Made by a program: the position numbers and the translations under genes. A stretch of DNA of 64,000 nt from Spirochaetia bacterium (GTDB lineage Bacteria > Spirochaetota > Spirochaetia > G963692905): positions 1,233,300 through 1,297,299 of the forward strand of contig OZ253446.1 of NCBI GenBank assembly GCA_965261245.1, written 5' to 3'. The notes under the pieces are model-generated. The model was given only the letters and a program-made list of their open reading frames with translations, was not told the DNA's origin and made no database searches. How positions within the stretch are numbered: the first letter of the stretch is position 1; each line of letters begins with the position of its first letter. Shown piece by piece: positions 17,224 to 50,818 of this stretch.

Positions 17224-17304
17224 ACAAGTACCTCCGATGTATTATGTCCTATAGTAGCATGTGCGGGGCGGTGTCGTCAAGTGCTTGGGAGAGGGTTTTT
17301 AGGA

Positions 17305-17458
17305 GGGGGGATACCCCCCTCGCTGCAGCCAGCGTGCCCCGCCTGCGCGAGCGCAGCCGCGGCACCAGTGCGCTAACCTGCTGCGCAGGTTACGGGCTCA
17401 CTCCCGCTCGCCCGCCGCGCACCTCGCTGTCTTCCGCTACCCCCCGTCGCTTCTGTGA
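17305..17458 (+). repeat. Family A repeat, copy A2
   Basis: Aligned by eye to A1. The tail motif GCTACCCCCCGTCGCTTCTGT recurs 88 nt downstream at 17524. Confidence 0.85.
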
Positions 17459-17725
17459 AGATATTAAGTCATCCACAAGAGATTGAAGCGTAATGCGCCG
17501 CAAAGGCGACGCCAATAAACAGACGCTACCCCCCGTCGCTTCTGTCTGCTTGTTGGCGCCGTGGTGACGGCGCATGGTTTTTTACCAACACTGGGGGGGG
17601 TTTGGCACCGCATACATCGCCGGCGGTGTACTTGCTGAAATACACCGCCATTGATTACACCCGCCATCTATCTGATAGACGCCGGCTTTACGCTGGCATT
17701 GCTACCAATTTGGTTGGTTATGGGA

Positions 17726-19075
17726 TTACTGGCATATGCTGCTACTGCATGAGCCACTGACACAATCGAAATTGTTAAAGCAAGCACCTCCTGTCTCACG
17801 AAGGCACGTGCCAATACTACTGCAAGCTAGCGAGGTATTGCAATGGTCGTTAAGCCGGCAAATACTTCCGATCATGCCAGTGGTGCTCGTGCATATTAGA
17901 TTGGAAGTCACGGTGGCACATATCAACGGGCTGGTGCATTGAATATCCCTTTGGCAAGCACCTCCGGACACAACAGTACCCGCCTGACTGCATACCTGGC
18001 TACCAGACGCTCCGGTACATATCAAACTACCAACACATGCATCGTCGGTAGTACATGTAGCCCCGGCCGCTATCCCGCACGCACCGCTCCCGCATACCAG
18101 GGCACCGTCACAGTGGTCATCGTTACCGCACACACTCCCGCCCAGGCCAGTGCCTGCCGTACTGCATACCTGACTACCGGTTGCACCGGTGCATATCAAC
18201 GGGTCGGTACATTGGTCATCGTCACTGCACGCATCATCAGCCATGCCGGCAGAGCATGTACCAGACCCACAGGTCAAACTACCGGCGCAATCGTCGTTGA
18301 CGCTGCAAGCAGCACCGGCTATTGCCCCGCATGCTCCGTTGCCGCAAATCAGCGGGCTGGTACAGTGGTCATTGGTGCCGCACACACTTCCAGTGGAACC
18401 GGTGCCTGCCTGGCTGCATACCTGACTACCGGATGCACCGGTGCATATCAAATCACCAGCACATGCGTCATCGGCAGTACATGTACCGCCGGCAGCTATT
18501 CCGCACGCACCGTTTCCGCACACTAGCGGGCTGGTACAATGGCTATCGATACCGCAAACACTCCCGTTCGCACCGGTGCCTGCTTGACTGCATACCTGAC
18601 TACCAGACGCGCCCGTACATATCAGCGCGCCGGCGCATTGGTCATCGACACTGCATGCATTGCCCGCCGCTATGCCGCATATACTATCACTGCCGCAAAT
18701 CAACGGCGCGGTGCACTCATCATTGGCATTACACATATCCCCGACATTGCCCCCAGGGCCGCCAGAGCAGGCCCCGATTTCACACATCAGGCCATCCGCG
18801 CAATGGCTATCGATACCGCACAAGGTACCGACCATGCCGTTACCGGCTTGCCTGCATAGCTTGTTATCAGATGCTCCCGCGCATATCAGACCGCTGACAC
18901 ATTCGTTATCCACCGTACAGGCATCACCTTCGGCTACGTTACTCCTGCCGCCTCCTCCATTGCCGCTGGTAGCGGCATCACAGCCGGCTATAACCAGGGG
19001 CAGGGCAATGATTGCACATACGGCAATTATTGCACTACATACACCAATTCGCGGTGTGCGTATTATATTATACAT
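17726..19075 (-). CDS. Cys-rich tandem-repeat lipoprotein (8-Cys modules of about 55 aa)
   Basis: Lipobox LVIAGC. About eight repeats of C-x5-C-x5-C-x8-C..C-x5-C-x5-C-x4-C (e.g. CTADDACAGDLICTGASGSQVCSQAGTGSTGSVCGTNDHCTSPLICGNGAC). Confidence 0.75.
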   Translation of the reverse strand: MYNIIRTPRIGVCSAIIAVCAIIALPLVIAGCDAATSGNGGGGRSNVAEGDACTVDNECVSGLICAGASDNKLCRQAGNGMVGTLCGIDSHCADGLMCEIGACSGGPGGNVGDMCNANDECTAPLICGSDSICGIAAGNACSVDDQCAGALICTGASGSQVCSQAGTGANGSVCGIDSHCTSPLVCGNGACGIAAGGTCTADDACAGDLICTGASGSQVCSQAGTGSTGSVCGTNDHCTSPLICGNGACGAIAGAACSVNDDCAGSLTCGSGTCSAGMADDACSDDDQCTDPLICTGATGSQVCSTAGTGLGGSVCGNDDHCDGALVCGSGACGIAAGATCTTDDACVGSLICTGASGSQVCSQAGTVVSGGACQRDIQCTSPLICATVTSNLICTSTTGMIGSICRLNDHCNTSLACSSIGTCLRETGGACFNNFDCVSGSCSSSICQ

Positions 19076-19239
19076 AATTGTATACCTCTCTTTGTATATT
19101 TAGAAAATTTTTCTTTATAGTTGACAACGAACCGGACGGCCGTGATGTATGAATAATAGTTCTGGCAGCACTGCTGAGATGAGAGAAATATATTTTTAGT
19201 GAAAAAAGCGGTGTATTTAGTACACTATTTTTACTGACT

Positions 19240-19260
19240 GGGGGGGGGGGGGGGGGGGGG
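19240..19260. repeat. Homopolymer G21 (C21 on the coding strand of the downstream gene)
   Basis: Counted directly. Ends 164 nt upstream of ATG 19075 and lies downstream of the promoter at 19365-19394. Confidence 0.95.
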
Positions 19261-19364
19261 TAAGTAGTGGTATAATAAGGACATAAAGCGATAATTTTAT
19301 AGCATTATACACGCTTTCCAAACGTGATGCGGTGGCTTTACACGCTACACTACTCACAATATAT

Positions 19365-19394
19365 ATTATAGCATACATTTTCGGGGGCTGTCAA
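19365..19394 (-). promoter_or_regulatory. Consensus promoter TTGACA-N18-TGc-TATAAT for the Cys-rich lipoprotein gene (about 285-nt leader)
   Basis: Perfect -35 and -10 hexamers on the minus strand. Confidence 0.55.
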
Positions 19395-19433
19395 GAGTTT
19401 TTTTACAAAACACTTACTGCTCTCTTTGTATAA

Positions 19434-20666
19434 TTACGGCAGAGTCGATACGGCGCCGTATAACCCTCCTGTGTTATTTGTGCCGATCCCCACCGTTACC
19501 CATTGGGTATTGGCATAATGGACGGCTAATAGTTCGTTGCTTGTACCGCTTGTGTCTCTTGTCCACATCGCGCCGTCCGTACTGGTGATTATGGCTCCTA
19601 CCCGTGTTTCGTTGCTGTTTATATCGTATCCCACCGCTACCCATTGGCTGTCGGCATAGTGGACATCAAGCAGCGCGCCGCTGACGTCGTTTGTCTGTGC
19701 CGTCCATGTGATGCCGTCGGAACTGGTACTTATGGCTCCACTGGTATTCCCCAGGCCGTCTATGTTGTTTCCCACCGCTACCCATAGGGAGTTAGCGTAG
19801 TAGATATCCCATATTCCGCCGTTTATATTGCTTACCCGCCCTGTCCACGCGGCGCCGTCCGGGCTGGTGGTTAACTCTCCCGCGTCGCCCGCGGCTGCCC
19901 ACAGGGAGTTGCCAAAGTATACAGTTCGCAGCCTATCGGTGGTATTGCTGGTCTGCGCTGCCCACGTTGTACCGGTTGCGCTGGTTGTTATGGCCCCGCT
20001 GGTGATGTCTCCCATGCTGTCTGTATTGGTTCCCACCGCAACCCATAGGGAGTTATCGTAATGGACGGCCGAGAGGGTACCGCGGGTTATATTACTGGTC
20101 CCCGCCGTCCACGTCCCCGTGCCGTTTGCGCTGGTTGTTATAACTGCGTTATCGCCAACCGCAACCCATAGGGAGTTGGCGTAGTGTACGTCAGACAACC
20201 CGCCGGTTACACTGCTTGTCTGGGCCGTCCATGCGGTGCCGTTCACACTGGTGCTTATACCTGCGTTGGCATCTACCATTACCCACAGGGAGTTGTCGTA
20301 GTGGATATCGAGTATTGTCCCCAGTGCGTTTGTTGTCCGCGGCGTCCATTCGGCGCCGTCGGGACTAGTGGCGGCACTCCCGGTTCCCGCCGCCACCCAC
20401 AGGGAGTTAGCGTAGTGGATAACCCGCAGGAGGCTCCCGACAGTATTACTTGTCTGCGCCGTCCACGTAGCCCCGGTTTCATCGTCCTCAACCACCCCCG
20501 GGGGGCCTTGGGGACCTGTTGGACCCGTCGGGCCTGCTGGGCCTGCCGGACCCGCCAGGCCTGCCGGACCTGTTAAACCCACTGGACCAGCTGGTCCGAC
20601 GCAGGCGGTTATTAGTACTGCGCCGCCTAGCAGCAGCGCGGTTGCTATTCTCACTATTCTATTCAT
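19434..20666 (-). CDS. Lipoprotein with collagen-like G-X-Y stalk and BNR/Asp-box beta-propeller repeats
   Basis: Lipobox LITAC. GPAGPVGLTGPAGLAGPAGPAGPTGPTGPQGPPG stretch. About 9 repeats of W..TS....L..VHYANSLWVAVG....ITTS.DG..W. Start trimmed to ATG 20666. Confidence 0.75.
   Translation of the reverse strand: MNRIVRIATALLLGGAVLITACVGPAGPVGLTGPAGLAGPAGPAGPTGPTGPQGPPGVVEDDETGATWTAQTSNTVGSLLRVIHYANSLWVAAGTGSAATSPDGAEWTPRTTNALGTILDIHYDNSLWVMVDANAGISTSVNGTAWTAQTSSVTGGLSDVHYANSLWVAVGDNAVITTSANGTGTWTAGTSNITRGTLSAVHYDNSLWVAVGTNTDSMGDITSGAITTSATGTTWAAQTSNTTDRLRTVYFGNSLWAAAGDAGELTTSPDGAAWTGRVSNINGGIWDIYYANSLWVAVGNNIDGLGNTSGAISTSSDGITWTAQTNDVSGALLDVHYADSQWVAVGYDINSNETRVGAIITSTDGAMWTRDTSGTSNELLAVHYANTQWVTVGIGTNNTGGLYGAVSTLP
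20496..20597 (-). repeat. Collagen-like (G-X-Y)11 coding repeat
   Basis: Uninterrupted Gly-every-third-residue stretch directly after the lipobox Cys. Confidence 0.8.
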
Positions 20667-20672
20667 GCCTGT

Positions 20673-20702
20673 ATTGTAACCCATATGCACAAACAGCGTC
20701 AA
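20673..20702 (-). promoter_or_regulatory. Promoter TTGACG-N18-TACAAT, 6 nt from ATG 20666 (leaderless candidate)
   Basis: Hexamers and spacing read directly. No SD. Confidence 0.5.
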
Positions 20703-20777
20703 TATTTTAGAGGGGGATCGCCCCCCTCTCGTCGCCACCGGCCACGCCCAGAGAGAGTGCCCACCGGGGCACTACAG

Positions 20778-22724
20778 TTACTGTGCCGGCTGTCCAGGCA
20801 GTGAGTCGCCGTTTGCCCCGCACGTTACCCCGGCGGGAAACATCGAGCAGTCAAAATCAGTACCCGCACCGTCGTAGTCAGCATAGCGGAGCCGCGGTGC
20901 CTTACCTGCGGCAAAGATCCACGCGTTCAGGGTGTTGTCATCTGCGTTACTCCAGGTCGACCATGTTTCAACCCGCTTTTGAGACGTAGAAGTACACGAT
21001 GCCTGAGTGGTGAACCCCGAGTAGGTTACCCCGGTAGTTGCACCCGTCATCGGTGCCGAGCAGGTTGAGTCGCTTGTATCCCATGTGCCCGCTGTCTTTG
21101 CCGCCGGGGAAGGCGCGCCGCATGCTGTCTGGGTAGTATAAGTAGTGTAGTCTATCCCGGCCGTTGCCCCTGTCATCGGTGCCGAGCAGGCCGAATCGGC
21201 TGTACTCCAGGAACCGGCGGCGACGGTAAGTGTTGTTGCGGTACATACCGTCTCAGAAGTGTATGTGGGGTTACTGCACGAGGCCGCGTTGGCGGCAGTA
21301 AGCCCGGTAGCGGAGGTTATGCCCACGGGCTTTGGTGATACTCCGCCCGTCGACTCTTCGTTGGTAACTTCACCAAATCCGTAGGATCCGGTGATGGGTA
21401 CAAACAACACCATCAGAGAACCGGCACGGTCGTCGGTTCCTGCGCCGGCGTCTACATTCCCGGTGGCGTAACTGGCAGTGACAATATTCCCGCTTGTTTG
21501 TTGTAGCCCTGCCAATCCGCCGATAAAATCGTTATCGCCGTTTCCGTTGACGTTTCCAGTGGCGTAACTTGCATCGATAGAAGCACCAGCGTCGGTCCGC
21601 CCTACCAAACCACCGGCATTGTCAGCTCCCCCGTTGGCATCAATGTTTCCAGTAGTAAAGCTAGCAGTTACGGAGCCTGCTAGCACACCCACCAGACCGC
21701 CAATTCTGTCAACGTTCCTGCTACCTACAACGTCTCCGGTAGCATAGCTGGCAGTAATAGCACCATGTCCCAATGCTGCCAAACTGCCGATGTGGACGAA
21801 GCCGCCGCCTGACCCGCTATGGGCCACCAAACCACCCACAAGCCCAATATTACGGATATGCGACTCTGCACCGGCTCCCCCAAAAAAACCGATAAAACCC
21901 TGGTCACGAAGAATTGCCAGATTGCTAATTGTAAACCCATTGCCCTCAAAGATAGTATTAAAAGTATTGATACCATCACCAACCGGCTCCCACCCGCCGT
22001 CACTCACCACAAAGTAAGGCGCGGCGTCATCGTCGTCATCAAGGGATCCATCTGCTTCAACGGTGCTGCCGTCGTTGTCCAAATCAAAATCAAGGTTTTG
22101 CAGCAGCTCGTACCCGCACAGATAGACTCCGTCGGTTGCGGTGGTACAATTACTGGTTGGCGCAGTAGGGGCACCTGCGGTGCTGCCGCCATCGGTGCCG
22201 CTGGTTTTGTAACTGGTACCATCCAGGTTGTAACGCATGTTATGGAGTTCAGCTAATGTGTTAATATCAATGAGCCCATCGTTGTCATTGTCAACATCAA
22301 CGCTGTCTATTACGGAATCTCGATCGGTATCTACCGCGCATACGGTACCGGGACCAGCCGTGCCGTCCAAGGCGTAGCCCGTGGTACATTCCTGACATCC
22401 AACGGTATCGGGAGCTGCTGCTGCGTCGCTAATTGGCGTACCGTTTTCACATGTATACACTGAACCGCATGCGGTACCGGGGCCTGCTGTCCCATCCAGG
22501 GTATAGCCCGTAGTACATTCCTGGCATCCGACGGTATCGGGGGTTGATATTGTTCCGGCAACTGGGGTGCCGTTCTGACATATATAGGTATAGGATGGGG
22601 GGTTGGTTTCCTCTACCGGACACCCCGCTATCAGTAGTGCCGTACCGGCACAAATAATTACTGCACACGCACGTGCGCTTATTCTTACAAGAGCATTGCT
22701 CTCATTCTTTCGTATATTTTTCAT
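20778..22724 (-). CDS. GLUG-repeat lipoprotein, paralogue 1
   Basis: Lipobox LIAGC. Two Cys modules (C.NGTP...GCQECTTGY.LDGTAGPGT.C). Ca-binding-like DTDRDSVIDSVDVDNDNDG. Repeated IGGLVG...ASYATGNV units. Conserved C-terminal tail ..RLRYADYDGAGTDFDCSMFPAGVTCGANGD.LPGQPAQ. Confidence 0.8.
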   Translation of the reverse strand: MKNIRKNESNALVRISARACAVIICAGTALLIAGCPVEETNPPSYTYICQNGTPVAGTISTPDTVGCQECTTGYTLDGTAGPGTACGSVYTCENGTPISDAAAAPDTVGCQECTTGYALDGTAGPGTVCAVDTDRDSVIDSVDVDNDNDGLIDINTLAELHNMRYNLDGTSYKTSGTDGGSTAGAPTAPTSNCTTATDGVYLCGYELLQNLDFDLDNDGSTVEADGSLDDDDDAAPYFVVSDGGWEPVGDGINTFNTIFEGNGFTISNLAILRDQGFIGFFGGAGAESHIRNIGLVGGLVAHSGSGGGFVHIGSLAALGHGAITASYATGDVVGSRNVDRIGGLVGVLAGSVTASFTTGNIDANGGADNAGGLVGRTDAGASIDASYATGNVNGNGDNDFIGGLAGLQQTSGNIVTASYATGNVDAGAGTDDRAGSLMVLFVPITGSYGFGEVTNEESTGGVSPKPVGITSATGLTAANAASCSNPTYTSETVCTATTLTVAAGSWSTADSACSAPMTGATAGIDYTTYTTQTACGAPSPAAKTAGTWDTSDSTCSAPMTGATTGVTYSGFTTQASCTSTSQKRVETWSTWSNADDNTLNAWIFAAGKAPRLRYADYDGAGTDFDCSMFPAGVTCGANGDSLPGQPAQ

Positions 22725-22756
22725 AGTGTTCTCCTTCTAAAATATATTCTGTCAGT

Positions 22757-22786
22757 AGCATACCATGTTGTGCGATTTGGGTGCAA
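22757..22786 (-). promoter_or_regulatory. Promoter candidate TTGCAC-N18-TATGCT for GLUG paralogue 1 (leader with GGAG)
   Basis: Read on the minus strand. A homologous sequence lies upstream of paralogue 2. Confidence 0.45.
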
Positions 22787-22821
22787 GCCTTTCACACCGG
22801 GCGTGGGGGAGAGAGAGGGTA

Positions 22822-22845
22822 GGCACCGCCTCCTTTGGCGGTGCC
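22822..22845 (-). terminator. Hairpin GGCACCGCC-N6-GGCGGTGCC downstream of GLUG paralogue 2 (no U-run)
   Basis: Perfect 9-bp stem, flanked by short GA runs. An identical copy is at 24924-24947. Confidence 0.35.
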
Positions 22846-22883
22846 AGAGAGAGAGCGAGAGCCCCGTCGAGAGATACTGCGTG

Positions 22884-24836
22884 CTACTGTGCCGGCTGTC
22901 CAGGCAGTGGGTCGCCGTTTGCCCCGCACGTTACCCCGGCGGGAAACATCGAGCAGTCAAAATCAGTACCCGCACCGTCATAGTCGGCGTAGCGGAGCCG
23001 CGGTGCCTTACCTGCGGCAAAGATCCACGCGTTCAGGGTGTTGTCATCCGCATTACTCCAGGTCGACCATGTTTCAACCCGCTTTTGAGACGTAGAAGTA
23101 CACGATGCCTGAGTGGTGAATCCCGAGTAGGTTACCCCGGTAGTTGCACCCGTCATCGGTGCCGAGCAGGTGGAGTCGCTTGTATCCCATGTGCCCGCTG
23201 TCTTTGCCGCCGGGGAAGGCGCGCCGCATGCTGTCTGGGTGGTATAAGTAGTGTAATCTATCCCGGCCGTTGCCCCTGTCATCGGTGCCGAGCAGGCCGA
23301 ATCGGCTGTACTCCAGGAACCGGCGGCAACAGTAAGTGTTGTTGCGGTACATACCGTCTCAGAAGTGTATGTGGGGTTACTGCACGAGGCCGCGTTGGCG
23401 GCAGTAAGCCCGGTAGCGGAGGTTATGCCTGCGGGCTTTGGTGACAATCCGCCCCCCGACTCTTCGTTGGTAACTTCACCGAATCCGTAGGATCCGGTGA
23501 TGGGTACAAACGTCACCGTCAGGGCACCGGCACGGTCAATGGTTCCTGCGCCGGCGTCTACATTTCCAGTGGCATAGCTGGCGGTGATAGCAGCAGGGTT
23601 TGCTGCTTGTTGCAGCCCTACCAGCCCGCCGACCCGATCGTTACCCCCGTTTCCGTTGACGTTCCCGGTGGCATAACTTGCATCGATATAACCAGTAGAG
23701 CGGATCCGTCCTACTAACCCACCGGTATTGTTATCTCCTGTGCCGCCGGCAACGTTTGCAGTAGCAAAGCTAGCGGTAATGGCGCCGCTCAGATCGCCTA
23801 CTAGACCGCCAACCCTGTCGGCGTCTATGCCGACAACGCTTCCGGTAGCATAGCTGGCGATAACAGCACCGAACACATTTCCTACCAGGCCGCCGACGTT
23901 GGAAGGCGTGCCTGACCCGCCGATATGAGTAATCGAAGCGTCTACTGACCCAATATTACGGACATGCGACCCTGGATTGATTCCTCCAAATAAACCGAGG
24001 TCGATCTGGTCTCTACGAATTGCCAGATTGCTAATTGTAAACCCATTGCCCTCAAAGAGGGCATCAAAAAGATTGGTATCATCACCGATCGGATCCCACC
24101 CGCCGTCACTCACCACAAAGTATGGCGCGGCGTCATCGTCGTCATCAAGGGATCCATCTGCTTCGACGGTGCTGCCGTCTCCGTCCAGATCAAAATCAAG
24201 GTTTTGCAGCAGCTCGTACCCGCACAGATAGACTCCGTCGGTTGCGGTGGTACAATTACTGGTTGGCGCAGTAGGGGCACCTGCGGTGCTGCCGCCATCG
24301 GTGCCGCTGGTTTTGTAACTGGTACCATCCAGGTTGTAACGCATGTTATGGAGTTCAGCTAATGTGTTAATATCAATGAGCCCATCGTTGTCATTGTCAA
24401 CATCAACGCTGTCTATTACGGAATCTCGATCGGTATCTACCGCGCATACGGTACCGGGACCAGCCGTGCCGTCCAAGGCGTAGCCCGTGGTACATTCCTG
24501 ACATCCAACGGTATCGGGAGCTGCTGCTGCGTCGCTAATTGGCGTACCGTTTTCACATGTATACACTGAACCGCATGCGGTACCGGGGCCTGCTGTCCCA
24601 TCCAGGGTATAGCCCGTAGTACATTCCTGGCATCCGACGGTATCGGGGGTTGATATTGTTCCGGCAACTGGGGTGCCGTTCTGACATATATAGGTATAGG
24701 ATGGGGGTGGGGGGTTGGTTGTCTCTACCGGACACCCCGCGATCAATAGTGCCGTACCGGCACAAATAATTACTGCACACGCACGTGCGCTTATTCTTAC
24801 AAGAGCATTGCTCTTATTCTTTCGTATATTTTTCAT
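22884..24836 (-). CDS. GLUG-repeat lipoprotein, paralogue 2
   Basis: Same architecture as paralogue 1. Start trimmed to MKNIRKNKSN (ATG 24836), because the longer ORF crosses the terminator/promoter cassette. Confidence 0.8.
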   Translation of the reverse strand: MKNIRKNKSNALVRISARACAVIICAGTALLIAGCPVETTNPPPPSYTYICQNGTPVAGTISTPDTVGCQECTTGYTLDGTAGPGTACGSVYTCENGTPISDAAAAPDTVGCQECTTGYALDGTAGPGTVCAVDTDRDSVIDSVDVDNDNDGLIDINTLAELHNMRYNLDGTSYKTSGTDGGSTAGAPTAPTSNCTTATDGVYLCGYELLQNLDFDLDGDGSTVEADGSLDDDDDAAPYFVVSDGGWDPIGDDTNLFDALFEGNGFTISNLAIRRDQIDLGLFGGINPGSHVRNIGSVDASITHIGGSGTPSNVGGLVGNVFGAVIASYATGSVVGIDADRVGGLVGDLSGAITASFATANVAGGTGDNNTGGLVGRIRSTGYIDASYATGNVNGNGGNDRVGGLVGLQQAANPAAITASYATGNVDAGAGTIDRAGALTVTFVPITGSYGFGEVTNEESGGGLSPKPAGITSATGLTAANAASCSNPTYTSETVCTATTLTVAAGSWSTADSACSAPMTGATAGIDYTTYTTQTACGAPSPAAKTAGTWDTSDSTCSAPMTGATTGVTYSGFTTQASCTSTSQKRVETWSTWSNADDNTLNAWIFAAGKAPRLRYADYDGAGTDFDCSMFPAGVTCGANGDPLPGQPAQ

Positions 24837-24860
24837 ACTATTCTCCTTATTTTTATTTTC

Positions 24861-24890
24861 AGTATACCGTATTGTACGATTTGGGTGCAA
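24861..24890 (-). promoter_or_regulatory. Promoter candidate TTGCAC-N18-TATACT for GLUG paralogue 2
   Basis: Homologous to 22757-22786. Confidence 0.45.
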
Positions 24891-24923
24891 GTCTTTCACA
24901 CCGAGCGTGGGGGAGAGAGGGTA

Positions 24924-24947
24924 GGCACCGCCTCCTTTGGCGGTGCC
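24924..24947 (-). terminator. Hairpin GGCACCGCC-N6-GGCGGTGCC downstream of GLUG paralogue 3
   Basis: Identical to 22822-22845. Confidence 0.35.
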
Positions 24948-24985
24948 AGAGAGAGAGCGAGAGCCCCGTCGAGAGATACTGCGTG

Positions 24986-26782
24986 CTACTGTGCCGGCTG
25001 TCCAGGCAGTGGGTCGCCGTTTGCCCCGCACGTTACCCCGGCGGGAAACATCGAGCAGTCAAAATCAGTACCCGCACCGTCATAGTCAGCATAGCGGAGC
25101 CGCGGTGCCTTACCTGTAGCAAACACCCATGCATTTAGCGTGTCATCACCAGCGTCATTCCACGATATGGTTAGCCAGTTACTGGCAGTTTTGCTAGTAG
25201 TCTCACAAGCTGTCTGTGAAGAAAAGAGAGTATACGTAACGCCGGCAGTAGCGCCCATGGATGGGGGGGTGCAGTTAGGAGACGCCCATACACCTGCGGC
25301 TTTACTAGTGCTAGTACATGCTGCCTGGGTGGTGTAAATTGGACTATTGCACCCCGAAGCCTCAGTGTTGGCAAGGGTAAGCCCGGTAGCGGCAGTAACG
25401 CCTGTCGGTTTTGTCGATATACCGTCCCCGTTATTATTCGTTACAGTTCCAAATCCATAGTTGGCAATGCTATACGGACCAGGAATGTTGCCGGCGCTAT
25501 AAACTCCAATTAGACTGCCGGCCATATCAGAAAAACCTATGCCACCGTCAACCGCACCAGTGGCATAACTTGCTGTGATGGCGCCGCCAAGGAGGCCGCC
25601 CACCAACCCTCCGACATTATCAAAATCTCCACCATTACCATTAACAGCACCAGTTGCATAACTTGCTGTTATGGAACCTGTGTTCATCTCTCCGACTAAA
25701 CCGCCGACAAGCTCGTTTGCAAGACTCTCAGTCATACCGCCATCAACTGTGCTGGTAGAAAAACTTGCTGTTATGGAGCCTCCACGTAGATTCCCGACTA
25801 AACCACCGACAATACTCCTGCCTCCAGTACCCCCAACAATGTTGCCAGTAGTATAACTCGCTATAACAGAACCGTTGTTGAATCCCACCAGGCCGCCGGC
25901 AGCAGTATTAGATGCGGAGCGTCTATTGTTAACCAATACATCGGTAAATCCTATATTGCGAACAACCGCCGTCAAACTAGCGCTGCCAAATGGAGCAACG
26001 TTTACCAAATTACGATGAATAGCAATATTGGCAACGGTAAAGCCATTACCATCAAAAATAGCATTAAAGCTGTTGTCGACATCACCAATTGGCGTCCACC
26101 CGCCGGTGCTCGCTGTAAAGTAGGGAGCGGCGTCATCGCCGCTGTCGAGTGTGGGGCTAGCGGGGGTGCCGGTGTAGGTGCTGCCGTCGCCGTCAAGGTC
26201 AAAATCAAGGTCCTGCATTAACTCATACCCGCACAGTACTACTGTTGTCATAGCATCACCGTCGTTACAATTTGCAGGCTCGGTTGCCGATGCTCCAGTG
26301 GTATCGGCGGTAGCCGCAGCGCTGGTTTTGTAGCTGGCACCGGTTAGGTCGTAGCGCATGTTATGGAGTTGCTCTAGTGTCCATATCTCTATGAGCCCAT
26401 CATCGTCGTTGTCTATATCAGTATCGCAAGCATGGCCGTCTGTCTGGTCGTTTGCATTCGGTACATTGGGACAGGTGTCGTTGACATTTGCTATATTGTC
26501 GTTATCAGTGTCTACCAGGCACTCGGTGCCTGCACCAGCCGTACCGGTTAGGGCGAAGCCGTTAACACAAGATTGGCACCCCGTAGTGTCGGCAATAGTA
26601 GTGGTACCGTCAATCGGTGTACCATTTTCGCAGGTATATTTTGACTCGCTGGTGCCGCCGCCGGGGGCGCCGCCGTTGGTGTCAACGGGACATCCCGCTA
26701 ATACTGTTATCAGTGTAATTGTTGCCAACCCGGCAACGGCGGCTACACTATGCCGTGTTAAAAAATATTTTAGATTACTCAT
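24986..26782 (-). CDS. GLUG-repeat lipoprotein, paralogue 3 (more divergent)
   Basis: Lipobox VLAGC. One Cys module, DTD/DND Ca-binding-like runs, VGGLVG repeats. The last ~45 codons are nearly identical to paralogues 1 and 2. Start at ATG 26782 (MSNLKYF). Confidence 0.75.
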   Translation of the reverse strand: MSNLKYFLTRHSVAAVAGLATITLITVLAGCPVDTNGGAPGGGTSESKYTCENGTPIDGTTTIADTTGCQSCVNGFALTGTAGAGTECLVDTDNDNIANVNDTCPNVPNANDQTDGHACDTDIDNDDDGLIEIWTLEQLHNMRYDLTGASYKTSAAATADTTGASATEPANCNDGDAMTTVVLCGYELMQDLDFDLDGDGSTYTGTPASPTLDSGDDAAPYFTASTGGWTPIGDVDNSFNAIFDGNGFTVANIAIHRNLVNVAPFGSASLTAVVRNIGFTDVLVNNRRSASNTAAGGLVGFNNGSVIASYTTGNIVGGTGGRSIVGGLVGNLRGGSITASFSTSTVDGGMTESLANELVGGLVGEMNTGSITASYATGAVNGNGGDFDNVGGLVGGLLGGAITASYATGAVDGGIGFSDMAGSLIGVYSAGNIPGPYSIANYGFGTVTNNNGDGISTKPTGVTAATGLTLANTEASGCNSPIYTTQAACTSTSKAAGVWASPNCTPPSMGATAGVTYTLFSSQTACETTSKTASNWLTISWNDAGDDTLNAWVFATGKAPRLRYADYDGAGTDFDCSMFPAGVTCGANGDPLPGQPAQ

Positions 26783-26788
26783 GCCTTG

Positions 26789-26818
26789 AGTATAGTACAA
26801 AAATATTTTTCTTGTCAA
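26789..26818 (-). promoter_or_regulatory. Promoter TTGACA-N18-TATACT, 6 nt from ATG 26782 (leaderless candidate)
   Basis: Read directly. No SD. Confidence 0.55.
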
Positions 26819-34842: not shown

Positions 34843-35805
34843 TTACTGGCATACAAAACTACTGCATACCCCACTGGCACAATCGCTATTATTACCGCAA
34901 CCGGTGCCGGCCGTCCCATCGGTGCATAGACCGTTTAGACAAGCAAAATCGCAATGGCTACTAAAACCGCAAACACTACCCGCACTACCATCACCGACGG
35001 CCGCGCATACATCACTGCCGGACACTCTGGCACATGTCAAACCAGTATCACAATCGGCAATGGCGGCGCACGCACTACCCGCACGGCCATTGCTTGCCGC
35101 GCATACATCACTGCCGGACACAAACGAACATATCAAATTAGTATCACAATCGGCACGGTCGGCGCACGCACTACCCGCACTGCCATCGCTTGCCGCGCAT
35201 ACCGTACTGCCAAGCATACTGGACACACCGGACACAACGGCACATACCAAACCGGCGGCACAATCACCGCTAACATCGCAAGCACCGCCGGCGGCTACCT
35301 TGCCGCATGCGCCGGCATTACATACTAGCGGACTGGTACAATGGCCATCGATACCGCACACACTGCCGGCACTGCCATCACCGGCGGCACTGCATACTCG
35401 GCTACCGGTTGCACCGGTGCATATCAAATCAGTATCACAATCACCATCGGCAACACAAGCGCCGCCGGCGGCTACCTTGCCGCATACCCCATTACCGCAC
35501 ACTAGCGGACTGCTACAATGGCTATCGATACCGCATACACTATCGGCACTGCCATCATCGGCGGCACTGCATACCTTGCTACCGGTTGCACCGGTGCATA
35601 TCAAATCAGTATCACAATCACCATCAGCAACACAAGCACCGCCGGCGGGTATTTTGCTTGCGCTGCTGCTGCCAGTATCACAACCGGCCAAAATCATCAC
35701 AACCGCCAGCACTCCGGCCGTTGCTATTACGCCGCGTAGGCGTTTTCTACTCGCTAAAGAGCGACAATCTCTCTCTGCGAGTGTATTAAACAATTGTATA
35801 TTCAT
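34843..35805 (-). CDS. Cys-rich tandem-repeat lipoprotein (intact paralogue)
   Basis: MNIQLFNTLAERDCRSLASRKRLRGVIATAGVLAVVMILAGC lipobox. 8-Cys modules as in 17726..19075. GGAG lies 9 nt upstream of the ATG. Confidence 0.75.
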   Translation of the reverse strand: MNIQLFNTLAERDCRSLASRKRLRGVIATAGVLAVVMILAGCDTGSSSASKIPAGGACVADGDCDTDLICTGATGSKVCSAADDGSADSVCGIDSHCSSPLVCGNGVCGKVAAGGACVADGDCDTDLICTGATGSRVCSAAGDGSAGSVCGIDGHCTSPLVCNAGACGKVAAGGACDVSGDCAAGLVCAVVSGVSSMLGSTVCAASDGSAGSACADRADCDTNLICSFVSGSDVCAASNGRAGSACAAIADCDTGLTCARVSGSDVCAAVGDGSAGSVCGFSSHCDFACLNGLCTDGTAGTGCGNNSDCASGVCSSFVCQ

Positions 35806-35913
35806 ATTTCTCTCTCCTTATTTTCATTTTAACACAACAAAACGGATACACCAATGCCGAATGCGCCCCGCCGGCTTGATGCCGGCACTGCTGCTATTCG
35901 GCCGGTTATGGGA

Positions 35914-36904
<991 letters not shown>

Positions 36905-37037: not shown

Positions 37038-38132
37038 TTACGGTGCAGTTGTCATGGTGCCGCCCGCTGCTACCCATAGCCCGTTGGCGTAATGGATATC
37101 CAGGAGTCCAGCGCTCACGTTACTTGTCTGTGCCGTCCATGCGGCACCGGTTACGCTGGTGGTTATGTCCCCCGCTCCCCCTCCAACCGCTACCCATAGG
37201 GCATTGGCATAGTGGATGTCAAATAACCCGCCGGTTACATTGCTTTCCTGCGGTGCCCATGTGCTGCCGTCTGCGCTGGTGGTTATGTCCCCGTCTTCCC
37301 CGACCGCTACCCATAGGTTATTGGCGTAGTATACGGCTTCCAGTTTACCGCTCACATTGCTTGTCTGCACCGCCCATGCGGTACCGTCTGTGCTGGTTGT
37401 TATGGCGCCGCTGGATACTGTATTTCCCATGTCGGTTACGCTGGCTTGACCAACCGCTACCCATGAATTATTGGCATAGTGGACGTCGTCCAGTGAGGTA
37501 TTTACATTGCTTGTCTGCGCCGTCCATGCGGTGCCGTTTGCACTGGTTGTTATGACTCCGTTCTCCCCAACCGCTACCCATAGGGTATTGGCATAGTGGA
37601 CGGCAAGCAGGGAGTCGCTCACGTTGCTTGTCTGCGCTGTCCATGCGGTGCCGTTTGCACTGGTGATTATGCCGCCGTCTGCTCCCACCGCTACCCATAG
37701 ATTGTTGGCATAGTGGACATCGGATAGGTTGCCGGTTACATTGCTGGTTTGTTCCATCCATTCGGTGCCGTCTGCACTGGTGATTACGTCTCCGCCGTCA
37801 CCAACCGTTACCCATAGGTTATTGGCATAATGGACGTCGCGCAGGTGACCGCTTGCATTGCTCATCTGCTGCTTCCATTCGGTGCCGTTTGCACTGGTGG
37901 TGATGCCTCCTGTGTTTATTGTGGTCCCCGTGTTGGTGACTCCCACCGCTACCCATAGGTTATTGGCATAATGGACGGCAGTTAGCCCGCCGGTCACACC
38001 GCTTACCCGTGCCGTCCATGTGGTGCCGGTTGGATCCTCGCTTGGTTGCTCGTCTGGGCAACCGATTAGTAGTATGCTGCTAATTATTATGGCCAGTAGC
38101 AAAGCCGCCGTTTTTATAAGGTATTTACTCAT
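37038..38132 (-). CDS. BNR/Asp-box beta-propeller lipoprotein
   Basis: Lipobox LLIGC. About 8 repeats of W..QTSNV...L.DVHYANNLWVAVG..G.ITTSA(D/N)GT.W. Start trimmed to ATG 38132. Confidence 0.75.
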   Translation of the reverse strand: MSKYLIKTAALLLAIIISSILLIGCPDEQPSEDPTGTTWTARVSGVTGGLTAVHYANNLWVAVGVTNTGTTINTGGITTSANGTEWKQQMSNASGHLRDVHYANNLWVTVGDGGDVITSADGTEWMEQTSNVTGNLSDVHYANNLWVAVGADGGIITSANGTAWTAQTSNVSDSLLAVHYANTLWVAVGENGVITTSANGTAWTAQTSNVNTSLDDVHYANNSWVAVGQASVTDMGNTVSSGAITTSTDGTAWAVQTSNVSGKLEAVYYANNLWVAVGEDGDITTSADGSTWAPQESNVTGGLFDIHYANALWVAVGGGAGDITTSVTGAAWTAQTSNVSAGLLDIHYANGLWVAAGGTMTTAP

Positions 38133-38138
38133 ATATAC

Positions 38139-38167
38139 ATTATACCACGGGAAAGGAATTTTGTCAA
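38139..38167 (-). promoter_or_regulatory. Consensus promoter TTGACA-N17-TATAAT, 6 nt from ATG 38132 (leaderless candidate)
   Basis: Perfect hexamers. Only GTATAT separates the -10 from the ATG. Confidence 0.6.
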
Positions 38168-38214
38168 ATTTTAGCAAATTTTGCCTGATATTTGACGCTT
38201 TCGTTTGTAGCCGG

Positions 38215-38517
38215 CTACCCAAGAAACTGATAGATACTAACCAGCACCGCGAGTAACGCAACCCCGAATGCACCAAACCACCGCAAACTAGCAAAGTTCT
38301 TGTCGGTTCTGTCCATATGGCGCGTGAAATCCTGACGCAGGTGCTTTATCTCTTCTTCAACCCGAATCATGCGTTCCACGATCCGCATATCTCTGGAAAA
38401 CCCTGTCCCACTGTCTGCAGCGTAGCTGGCGGTGTTTGCGTGCATTTGCTGTGTTATCAGGGGAACCAGTTCGGTAACCAGCGCTTTTTTGTCTGCTTTC
38501 GTTAACGCTTGAGCCAT
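38215..38517 (-). CDS. Small coiled-coil protein with C-terminal TM anchor
   Basis: 100 aa. C-terminal helix WFGAFGVALLAVLVSIYQFL. No family recognised. Confidence 0.5.
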   Translation of the reverse strand: MAQALTKADKKALVTELVPLITQQMHANTASYAADSGTGFSRDMRIVERMIRVEEEIKHLRQDFTRHMDRTDKNFASLRWFGAFGVALLAVLVSIYQFLG

Positions 38518-49111: not shown

Positions 49112-50818
49112 CTATCGAATTTGCCACACTGCTTTTGCTTGTGCGGCTAACCACTTTTGATGCTTATTAAGAGTATCTATATCCCACGCGTCGTATGCCG
49201 CGATTTTATTATTTATCTTGCATGGAGATTTACGCAGTGTCTCTTTCTTTTCTGCAAAACTTTCTTGTGCCATATTCTTGCTACGGGACAGTAATGTCAT
49301 GTTCCCCAATCTGCCTATCGCTTCATTGTAATTTTCCAGTCCAAAGTACTCTCGCCAGGCGTCATTGGGTTTTGCGGGCAGAATATGCTCTACCGTTAAA
49401 TTTACAGGCAGTTCATCCCCGCCTGAAAGATACTTCTCTATTTGCAGTAATAGGTATTTGGCTTTTGTATTACTTTGCCTGCTTGGCATCGTTTTGAGAC
49501 TAAAGTCTGCTACAAATTTCTCATCGCGTGGATAAACTTTATCTAGTAATCTGCTCTTTACTCCTTGAATACCTTGGGGCTTATTACTTGTGATGTACAT
49601 GGATATATCATTATAGATTTTCTCCTGAAGGTTGGGCATTCTTTCGCCAATTATATTGTACCGAATAGATATCACGGCTAGCCATTTAACAATCTTAACG
49701 AATTGAGTTGGTGTAAAATTAGTATATGATGCCATCATTAAGCTCAATGGAGTTTTAATATTGAATACGTCTAGCGTTCTTAAATCCTCAATGCACTGCT
49801 TATATACGGGACTGTGTTCACTCCAAAATCCATCGCCAGGGTCTTGCAGAGCAGCATAGATCGTGGCGTAATTTTCTAAATGGCAGACATAGGGTACTAC
49901 TTTATCTTGTTTGTCTCTAGATAGTTTATTTCTCAAAACTCGATACAGCTCTTTTGTTGGTCTTAAACGAGTAGACATTCCTTCGTAGCTGCGCAAAAAA
50001 GAGGTAAAGTTTGCTTCCCCCAACTGGTCAAGAATACCCGCCCATATCTGTTCAAATTCTTCAATATCCGCATCAGTGATTTTCTCTTTATCAGATGACA
50101 AAATTGATAATAAATAATTTTTGAGCAGATCGGGGATAGCCAAATGTAACCCACGGGCATTCAGAGTTTCGAATACCAAATAAGCATCTAAGTCATCTCC
50201 TACTGCAATTGTTGTAAAAAGAAGGCCAGCGCCTATTGATTCTACTAACTGTGCAAGTGCTTCGCTAGTATACCCTTTAATTACATTCTCAAAAAATTCA
50301 AACGCCTTGTTAATTTTACGATTACTGGTAGCTGTAATGCCGCGTTTTGTAGGAATGCCATATGGGTAGGAAATTATTGCTTTAAAATGCTTGCTGTTAG
50401 TTCGGTTTAAAATAAGTTTGGGAGCAGTTCGTAATGTTGTTAAGTTTAAAACTCCTAAATAACGCTTATGAATTTCTTCTCTCCTCACCTCGTTCTTTTT
50501 AGTTTCATGACCGCTAGCAATAATTTTTTTCAATCTTGCCAGAACGGCAATAATGATTAAAGTAATAGTGGTGATGCGTTGCTGCCCGTCGACAATTTCA
50601 AATTTCTTGCTGTCCTGGCTTTGCAAGACCAAATATCCCATAAAATGCTGTATTTTCTCGCTGCGCATACGTTCAATGTCTTGCCATAACTCAGTAATTT
50701 GTTCTATTTCCCAGGAATAATCTCTCTGAAAATTAGGAACAATATAACTTTTGTCGTTTGACATAATTTCACCAAACGTCTTGTTGACGGGAGTTAAGGG
50801 AATTTCTTTAAATTGCAT
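49112..50818 (-). CDS. DUF262/DUF1524 two-domain nuclease (GmrSD-like type IV restriction / defence candidate)
   Basis: N-terminal YIVPNFQRDYSW and DGQQRITT (DUF262/ParB-like). C-terminal HNH-like EHILP..N..GNMTLL (DUF1524). Markedly AT-rich. Confidence 0.75.
   Translation of the reverse strand: MQFKEIPLTPVNKTFGEIMSNDKSYIVPNFQRDYSWEIEQITELWQDIERMRSEKIQHFMGYLVLQSQDSKKFEIVDGQQRITTITLIIIAVLARLKKIIASGHETKKNEVRREEIHKRYLGVLNLTTLRTAPKLILNRTNSKHFKAIISYPYGIPTKRGITATSNRKINKAFEFFENVIKGYTSEALAQLVESIGAGLLFTTIAVGDDLDAYLVFETLNARGLHLAIPDLLKNYLLSILSSDKEKITDADIEEFEQIWAGILDQLGEANFTSFLRSYEGMSTRLRPTKELYRVLRNKLSRDKQDKVVPYVCHLENYATIYAALQDPGDGFWSEHSPVYKQCIEDLRTLDVFNIKTPLSLMMASYTNFTPTQFVKIVKWLAVISIRYNIIGERMPNLQEKIYNDISMYITSNKPQGIQGVKSRLLDKVYPRDEKFVADFSLKTMPSRQSNTKAKYLLLQIEKYLSGGDELPVNLTVEHILPAKPNDAWREYFGLENYNEAIGRLGNMTLLSRSKNMAQESFAEKKETLRKSPCKINNKIAAYDAWDIDTLNKHQKWLAAQAKAVWQIR

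Follow-up and report, generated by a model that had tools for sequence, protein, structure and literature searches.

The question raised by this locus is whether an exceptionally long G:C homopolymer that lies ahead of a lipoprotein gene serves to vary the expression of that gene, or whether it is a run of bases that has grown there without consequence. The window, i.e. the whole 64,000-nucleotide stretch of DNA that was analysed, reads TTTACTGACT-G21-TAAGTAGTGG on its plus strand, with the Gs at exactly 19240-19260. The tract is pure, and it gives C21 in the coding strand and the RNA of the lipoprotein gene and G21 in the template strand. A run-length census found it to be the sole homopolymer above 9 nt in the 64 kb, the next longest being three C9 runs and then a handful of 8-mers. 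Both the direct reading and the census thus confirm the earlier note, which had singled out this run as the longest homopolymer of the window. The homopolymer counts of the census drop about 3-fold with every additional base, and a 21-mer is therefore not a product of chance. The intergenic region is AT-rich: without the tract, the predicted leader has about 35% G+C, as against 56.7% for the window.

The gene that follows the tract (17726-19075, minus strand) encodes a 449-aa protein. According to the translation its signal peptide is that of a lipoprotein and ends in LPLVIAG before the cysteine (lipobox LVIAG/C), and the protein carries Cys-rich repeats of roughly 58 aa each. The ATG is preceded, at a distance of 9 nt, by the Shine-Dalgarno sequence GAGAGG (19085-19090). 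Pfam returned DUF7107 and Dickkopf_N for this protein, both as weak matches. The internal repeats are common to paralogues at 34843-36904, and a second set consisting of a propeller gene and Cys-rich lipoprotein genes is located at 34.8-38.3 kb. The gene immediately upstream (19434-20738, minus strand) encodes a propeller protein in which Asp-box-like repeats come after a collagen-like Gly-Pro stretch, and its stop codon begins at 19434. Exact-protein look-ups returned no record of the lipoprotein, of the upstream propeller protein or of a 157-aa neighbour. A homologue search with the full-length lipoprotein gave 9 distant matches only and missed the orthologue described below, and a search with the first 134 residues gave zero matches.

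Between the two genes there is a sigma-70-type promoter, TTGACA-18 nt-TATAAT, which agrees with the consensus at 12/12 hexamer positions and has an upstream TG, i.e. an extended -10 (19365-19394, minus strand). Perfect 12/12 sites occur only three times in the 64 kb window, the lipoprotein promoter included. The start site is predicted near 19358, which gives a predicted 5' leader of about 283 nt (19076-19358, minus strand) in which the tract occupies RNA positions 99-119. The tract is separated from the -10 hexamer by 104 nt and from the ATG at 19075 by 164 nt; these distances, like the positions of the propeller stop, the promoter and the ATG, had been given correctly from the start. A second promoter-like site (9/12, 19321-19294) is likewise upstream of the tract. 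For the stretch from the tract to the ATG, a relaxed promoter scan gave no site that matches at 9/12 positions or more, the best one scoring 8/12. The only strong sigma-70-type promoter between the two genes thus lies upstream of the tract and the lipoprotein ATG follows downstream, so that transcription of the tract, as a C-run within the predicted leader, is most probable. The promoter scan thus supports as most probable the earlier proposal of a C21 run in a leader of about 285 nt, and we regard the tract as likely to be a hypermutable element within a leader.

A leader of this length is conspicuous in comparison with the promoters of neighbouring surface-protein genes, which have a leaderless-type layout. 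In both propeller genes (20660-20715 and 38125-38170, minus strand) a near-consensus -10 hexamer is followed by the ATG at a distance of exactly 6 nt. The other perfect promoter of the minus strand, with its -35 at 38167, lies ahead of one of them and a near-consensus promoter (TTGACG, 18 nt, TACAAT; about 20709-20672) lies ahead of the other. An example of the layout is TTGACA-17-TGGTATAAT-gtatat-ATG, and the longer ORF starts of the propeller genes (GTG at 20738, TTG at 38294) are probably wrong. The same arrangement, TATAAT-6 nt-ATG, is found in lipoprotein homologues of related contigs (L002:3365-3405 and L003:4950-4990). The neighbouring surface genes and the lipoprotein homologues thus appear, on the basis of their promoter sequences, to have leaderless mRNAs, and the predicted 283-nt leader is therefore special to this lipoprotein gene. 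No other copy of the leader was found in the window or in any retrieved locus. Long repeats are absent upstream of the three distant lipoprotein homologues (L001-L003); L003 has a C9 run on its coding strand, 283 nt ahead of the called start, and its real start looks leaderless.

A 14-mer, ATGTATGCTATAAT, is common to the lipoprotein promoter (19365-19383) and to the leaderless promoter at L002:3378-3396, which belongs to a 65%-identical homologue from another species. Where the leaderless genes carry their ATG, the lipoprotein leader of the window has ATT. These two features are the reason for which we consider that the long leader may have been acquired secondarily, or may be what is left of a former 5' coding region.

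Sister contigs were recovered by synteny, using a conserved cNMP-phosphodiesterase gene that is located 4 kb away. Two contigs of ENA sample ERZ26694059, L004 and L005, are 95.4-95.8% identical to the window. L004 stops just short of the lipoprotein gene, whereas L005 carries the orthologous gene together with its leader and promoter. At the orthologous position this independent metagenome contig has a pure G27 (L005:14859-14885). The comparison with related strains that had been called for has thus revealed a difference in tract length, G21 in the window versus G27 in L005, albeit as two alleles that both come from consensus assemblies, in which runs of 21-27 nt are the hardest to call. Over 6.7 kb of aligned flank the L005 assembly has no more than 3 single-base gaps; of the 11 homopolymers of at least 6 nt, 9 have the same length in L005 as in the window. 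Because of this low indel noise, the difference between 21 and 27 is probably real. G/C repeats become mutable at about 8 or more uninterrupted units, and the tract is above this threshold without interruption in both strains. As the same promoter, leader and gene with a pure G-run at this point are present in L005, the sequence comparison indicates that the G21 is a genuine, maintained and probably length-polymorphic tract.

The sequences around the tract are conserved to different degrees. The promoter is identical at 36/36 positions, the leader is 93% identical between the promoter and the tract and 93-94% identical beside the ATG, and a variable patch of 30 nt (19157-19186) is 57% identical, with 13/30 differences. 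In each strain this patch contains a short palindrome, GCAGTGCTGC in the window versus CAGTACTG in L005. Upstream of the promoter the homology ends a few bases past the -35, where L005 has an IS element. The lipoprotein orthologue shows 80% amino-acid identity, and its ORF is apparently split in L005 into pieces of 409 aa and 99 aa. Two transposase-like ORFs bracket the L005 lipoprotein cassette (L005:11971-12881 and L005:15141-16155), and one of them takes the place of the propeller gene immediately upstream of the conserved promoter.

Further occurrences of the locus were sought in several ways. A same-locus search with exact flanks and a variable gap found no match in genome or metagenome contig collections, and the conserved 28-mer of the promoter had no match in the metagenome contig collection. 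A third orthologous tract was not found: the sister species (78-84% identity) lack the whole surface-protein island. The missing part (window about 17300-26800; absent from L006 and L087-L090) comprises the Cys-rich lipoprotein, propeller and GLUG proteins, whereas the adjacent block with the phosphodiesterase, ferric-reductase-like and 161-aa genes is retained. By these comparisons, the island is specific to the strain or species. Among species representatives, 'MAG: Spirochaetia bacterium' OY843583.1 comes nearest, with 77% amino-acid identity in a conserved neighbouring gene, and the other relatives are uncultured Spirochaetaceae MAGs. The host, as placed by sequence identity, is thus a member of an uncultured Spirochaetia lineage and not a Treponema.

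Several simple readings were ruled out. A frameshift switch of the lipoprotein is incompatible with the 4 stop codons that lie in its frame between the tract and the ATG, and a spacing change in the lipoprotein promoter with the location of the tract outside that promoter. A promoter tract of the Treponema pallidum type was rejected, as the tract starts 104 nt past the -10 hexamer and is 21-27 nt long, not 7-12; among the sites of at least 9/12 in the promoter scan, none contains the tract in its spacer or has it immediately ahead of the start site. A switch by RNA structure was rejected as well, given that the folds predicted for C-runs from 0 to 33 nt agree with each other, also in how the Shine-Dalgarno sequence is paired. 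The leader is not a known RNA element, with no Rfam family matching it or any part of the 700 nt around the tract. Finally, a sigma-54-like match in the variable patch was dismissed by eye, having the wrong spacing, being on the wrong strand and not being conserved.

The window contains one more long simple repeat. It is a (GA)18, i.e. (TC)18 on the plus strand, at 36839-36874 (minus strand), in the 5' coding region of a paralogous Cys-rich lipoprotein gene with its ATG at 36904; the paralogy is seen from the shared repeats and a DUF7107 match. With 18 units the frame ends after 28 codons. With one unit more or two units fewer, the frame reads MNIQLFNTLA(ER)n…VLAVVMILAGC…, i.e. a complete lipoprotein precursor with the lipobox LAGC. 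From its sequence we take this paralogue to be a classic translational phase-variable gene that is at present off. Long simple repeats thus occur only twice in the window, which has about 55 genes, and both times at the 5' end of a gene of this lipoprotein family; the presence of the (GA)18 supports the view that this is a family of contingency loci. The claim that the homopolymer is a second hypermutable device of a different kind on the same family therefore stands in so far as a different repeat is present; the (GA)18 is translational, however, and mechanistically unrelated to the tract.

We tentatively suggest, with a probability of roughly 45%, that the G21 is a poly(G:C) contingency repeat which is prone to slippage and which, from within the untranslated leader of this gene for a surface lipoprotein, tunes the yield of transcript. 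This suggestion is based on a tract that is pure, longer than expected by chance, unique in the window and downstream of a conserved, perfect promoter, and that is retained at the same site but with another length in a strain about 4.5% diverged. Its position, past the promoter and ahead of the ATG of a lipoprotein gene with a lipobox, is that of a contingency locus, such loci being found in the ORF or in 5' control sequences of genes that typically encode surface proteins. Replication slippage would alter the length of the tract at high frequency, and the length would set the amount of full-length mRNA. The tract would then act as a graded dial rather than as a strict on/off switch, and it would do so during the elongation or termination of the transcript.

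The step that we consider most likely in such a mechanism is the loading of Rho on the C-run, because this is the only strongly C-rich, G-poor and unpaired segment of the leader. Windows of 78 nt that contain the whole tract have a C/G ratio of 5-6.2 and 21-25 YC dinucleotides, whereas the ratio elsewhere in the leader is 0.6-2.7. In the minimum-free-energy and centroid folds the C-run itself is unpaired, and the pairing probability of the tract is at most 0.15 at every tract length modelled. No start codon ahead of the tract is accompanied by a Shine-Dalgarno sequence. The tract region is thus C-rich, G-poor, predicted to be unstructured and apparently untranslated, which are the features by which rut sites are recognised. 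Rho usually terminates 100-200 nt downstream of its loading site (PMC10319736), so that the stops would fall at the start of the gene and a longer tract would lead to more premature termination. Rho-dependent termination is widespread in at least one spirochaete (PMC10319736). In its composition and predicted lack of structure, and in having the start of the gene within the 100-200 nt termination zone, the tract resembles the rut sites of other leaders (PMC10319736). Known rut sites are, in contrast, diffuse regions with C>G, and the tract is a pure homopolymer.

A G-quadruplex in the template strand could supplement or replace the Rho step. According to the common rule, such a structure can form where G3+N1-7 is repeated four times, and the G-run of the template strand satisfies this pattern. 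A fold that permits quadruplexes also predicts one, although it was computed with RNA energy parameters for a DNA strand and is indicative only. Action through Rho or through a quadruplex would be graded rather than binary in its effect and would favour a long tract, which would explain why the tract has 21-27 nt rather than 7-12. A hypermutable Rho-loading site or a template G-quadruplex roadblock, at which slippage heritably retunes premature termination in the leader, would be a specific version of the dial proposed above, and in this specific form we hold it to be unlikely. If it were true, it would be a contingency locus that works via transcription termination and not via promoter spacing or reading frame.

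Two other features of the predicted leader RNA lie beside the C-run. A long-range helix is predicted within 19260-19357 (minus strand), in which RNA positions 2-11 (19348-19357) pair with positions 90-99 (19260-19269), so that the helix abuts the 5' edge of the C-run. Both arms are identical in L005, and there is consequently no covariation signal. A short hairpin, GUGUA-CUAAA-UACAC followed by CGC and then U6 (19202-19225, minus strand), starts 15 nt after the tract and is kept in L005 with one change in the loop. It is too weak to appear in the terminator scan. This inverted repeat could be a weak terminator-like hairpin or an operator-like site for protein binding.

As regards known systems, the general kind of element is a familiar one, i.e. 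a repeat in the 5' region of a surface-protein gene; what is unusual is the length, the position and the uncultured spirochaete host. [quoted passage not shown] The uspA1 and uspA2 repeats reportedly lie downstream of the transcription start site, as is said to have been found by Lafontaine in 2001 and Attia in 2006. Like them, the present tract is a simple repeat that separates the start codon of a surface-protein gene from its promoter, with the reservation that the start site is here a predicted one. In Moraxella catarrhalis, length changes of these repeats alter the mRNA level in a graded, high/low manner and without a frameshift (PMC7302503). The uspA1 tract has 6-12 G and lies 29 bp from the ORF, whereas here the tract has 21-27 nt, lies 164 nt from the ATG and has C on the coding strand. 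The G-repeat in the leader of tlpB of Helicobacter pylori is targeted by the small RNA RepG, which results in a gradual, length-dependent control (PMC8295292). The likeness is that of a variable homopolymer in the 5' UTR (here a predicted one) of a surface-related gene. In tlpB, however, a C/U-rich loop of the small RNA pairs with 7-12 G, whereas the RNA here would carry C and the tract is about twice as long.

The promoter-located tracts are more remote. The poly-G tracts of tprE/G/J/L and tp0126 of T. pallidum have 7-12 nt and are part of the promoter itself, where they either separate the -35 from the -10 or stop about 4 nt short of the transcription start (PMC7864442). The present tract resembles them in being a G:C homopolymer of apparently variable length 5' of a putative surface-protein gene of a spirochaete (PMC7864442). 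It differs in lying 104 nt downstream of the -10 hexamer and in a host that is not a Treponema, and the analogy with the tpr genes that had been drawn in the earlier note does not hold, the architecture being different (PMC7864442). The surface-protein genes porA (poly-G) and opc (poly-C) of Neisseria meningitidis are controlled by switches in the promoter spacer (PMC7864442). Here too a G:C homopolymer is found at a surface-protein gene, but it is not between or over the -35 and -10 of the promoter of that gene, and the hexamers of the opposite strand are 31-37 nt apart.

A neutral origin is the alternative that has to be taken most seriously, even if we consider it rather doubtful. The tract would be a runaway homopolymer that arose by slippage in a tolerant, AT-rich, non-coding stretch, and its length would drift with no effect on expression. 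Both observed lengths (21 and 27) are far above the 7-12 nt of characterised switches, in fact the tract is much longer than any of them, and in a run of this length changes of one or two bases may have little effect. The island is strain-specific, fast-evolving and, in L005, flanked by IS elements, all of which would be compatible with drift. Moreover, only about 1-1.5 interrupting substitutions are expected since the split of the strains (about 1.5 at the leader divergence of about 7%), so that two pure tracts are only mildly surprising. On the other hand, long G/C runs are absent from the rest of the window and nearly so from the relatives: 1.38 Mb of related spirochaete loci contain just two homopolymers above 10 nt, the L005 orthologue and one unrelated G28. 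The tract is long and pure in both lineages, the leader that contains it is unusual for this set of genes and otherwise 93% conserved, and the other long repeat of the window is a functional-looking switch in a paralogue. These points speak against mere drift. Even if neutral, the tract would still be a useful marker for strain typing in metagenomes, being an extremely mutable site.

Another explanation concerns the opposite strand. A promoter-like array is located at 19234-19276 (plus strand), consisting of cTGACT, Gn, 10 nt and TGGTATAAT; the corresponding hexamers of L005 are TTGACT and TGGTAGAAT. The tract would then be the spacer of a promoter of the porA/tp0126 type, the antisense transcript would collide with the lipoprotein promoter, and the tract length would set the extent of the interference. 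It is true that both hexamers flank the tract and are kept in L005, where the -35-like element even improves to TTGACT and the TG is kept as the -10 becomes TGGTAGAAT. However, the spacer has 31 nt (37 in L005) as against 17 in functional promoters, i.e. the two alleles are 14-20 nt off, and a 17-nt spacer would need a G7. The extended -10 would fire whatever the length of the tract. Neither a plus-strand gene nor a conserved terminator is found downstream, and the homology with L005 ends about 120 nt further on. This explanation therefore seems very unlikely.

It is also scarcely probable that a small ORF runs through the tract, such that the C-run is read as polyproline and the tract length sets the frame. 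Ribosomes in one frame would read 56 codons up to a stop that overlaps the lipoprotein ATG, which would allow coupling or protection from Rho, and those in the other frames would meet a stop shortly behind the C-run. In L005 as in the window, a frame without stops extends from the tract to a point slightly beyond the ATG in spite of the 13/30 differences that the variable patch contains; 190 of 5000 shuffles had a longest open stretch that reached 56 codons. The frame that begins 6 nt past the -10 hexamer crosses the tract without a stop in either strain. Nevertheless, in the relevant frame there is no ATG, GTG or TTG with a Shine-Dalgarno sequence before the tract, and the position of a leaderless ATG is occupied by ATT. 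The amino-acid changes between the strains are almost all non-synonymous and look unconstrained. With C21, moreover, the long frame differs from the frame that is entered from the 5' end, and as a second frame is also largely open the signal is weak.

A sequencing or assembly artefact is hardly credible: poly-G read artefacts do occur on some platforms, and the G28 in the unrelated, low-coverage Illumina MAG contig L017 is suspicious in this respect, but the tract is internal to a 2.34 Mb contig, has unique flanks and recurs at the corresponding site of a diverged strain whose assembly is independent and has near-zero indel noise. The G28 itself (L017:4482-4509) lies within a G-rich stretch between two convergent genes of a high-GC Spirochaetia MAG sequenced with Illumina at 4x, and may be a poly-G sequencing artefact.

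Should the tract indeed tune expression as a contingency repeat in the leader, surface variation driven by repeats would occur not only in well-studied pathogens but also in an uncultured spirochaete lineage with a small genome (2.3 Mb). One lipoprotein family would then have two unrelated repeat devices, i.e. a coding (GA)n frame switch and a leader homopolymer. The length of the tract and its position deep in the leader make it a clean natural test of attenuation that depends on Rho or a G-quadruplex and is set by a homopolymer.

Two further observations concern the neighbourhood. Three tandem paralogues, encoding large, thrombospondin-like lipoproteins with GLUG motifs, are located at 20778-26818 (minus strand). 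They share segments that are 97-100% identical, e.g. 22199-22299 equals 24305-24405, which suggests recent duplication or gene conversion within the same surface-protein island. At 49112-50818 (minus strand) there is a gene for a GmrSD-type restriction endonuclease, a modified-DNA-specific enzyme of which both the N-terminal and the C-terminal domains match; this is a defence gene that is unrelated to the tract.
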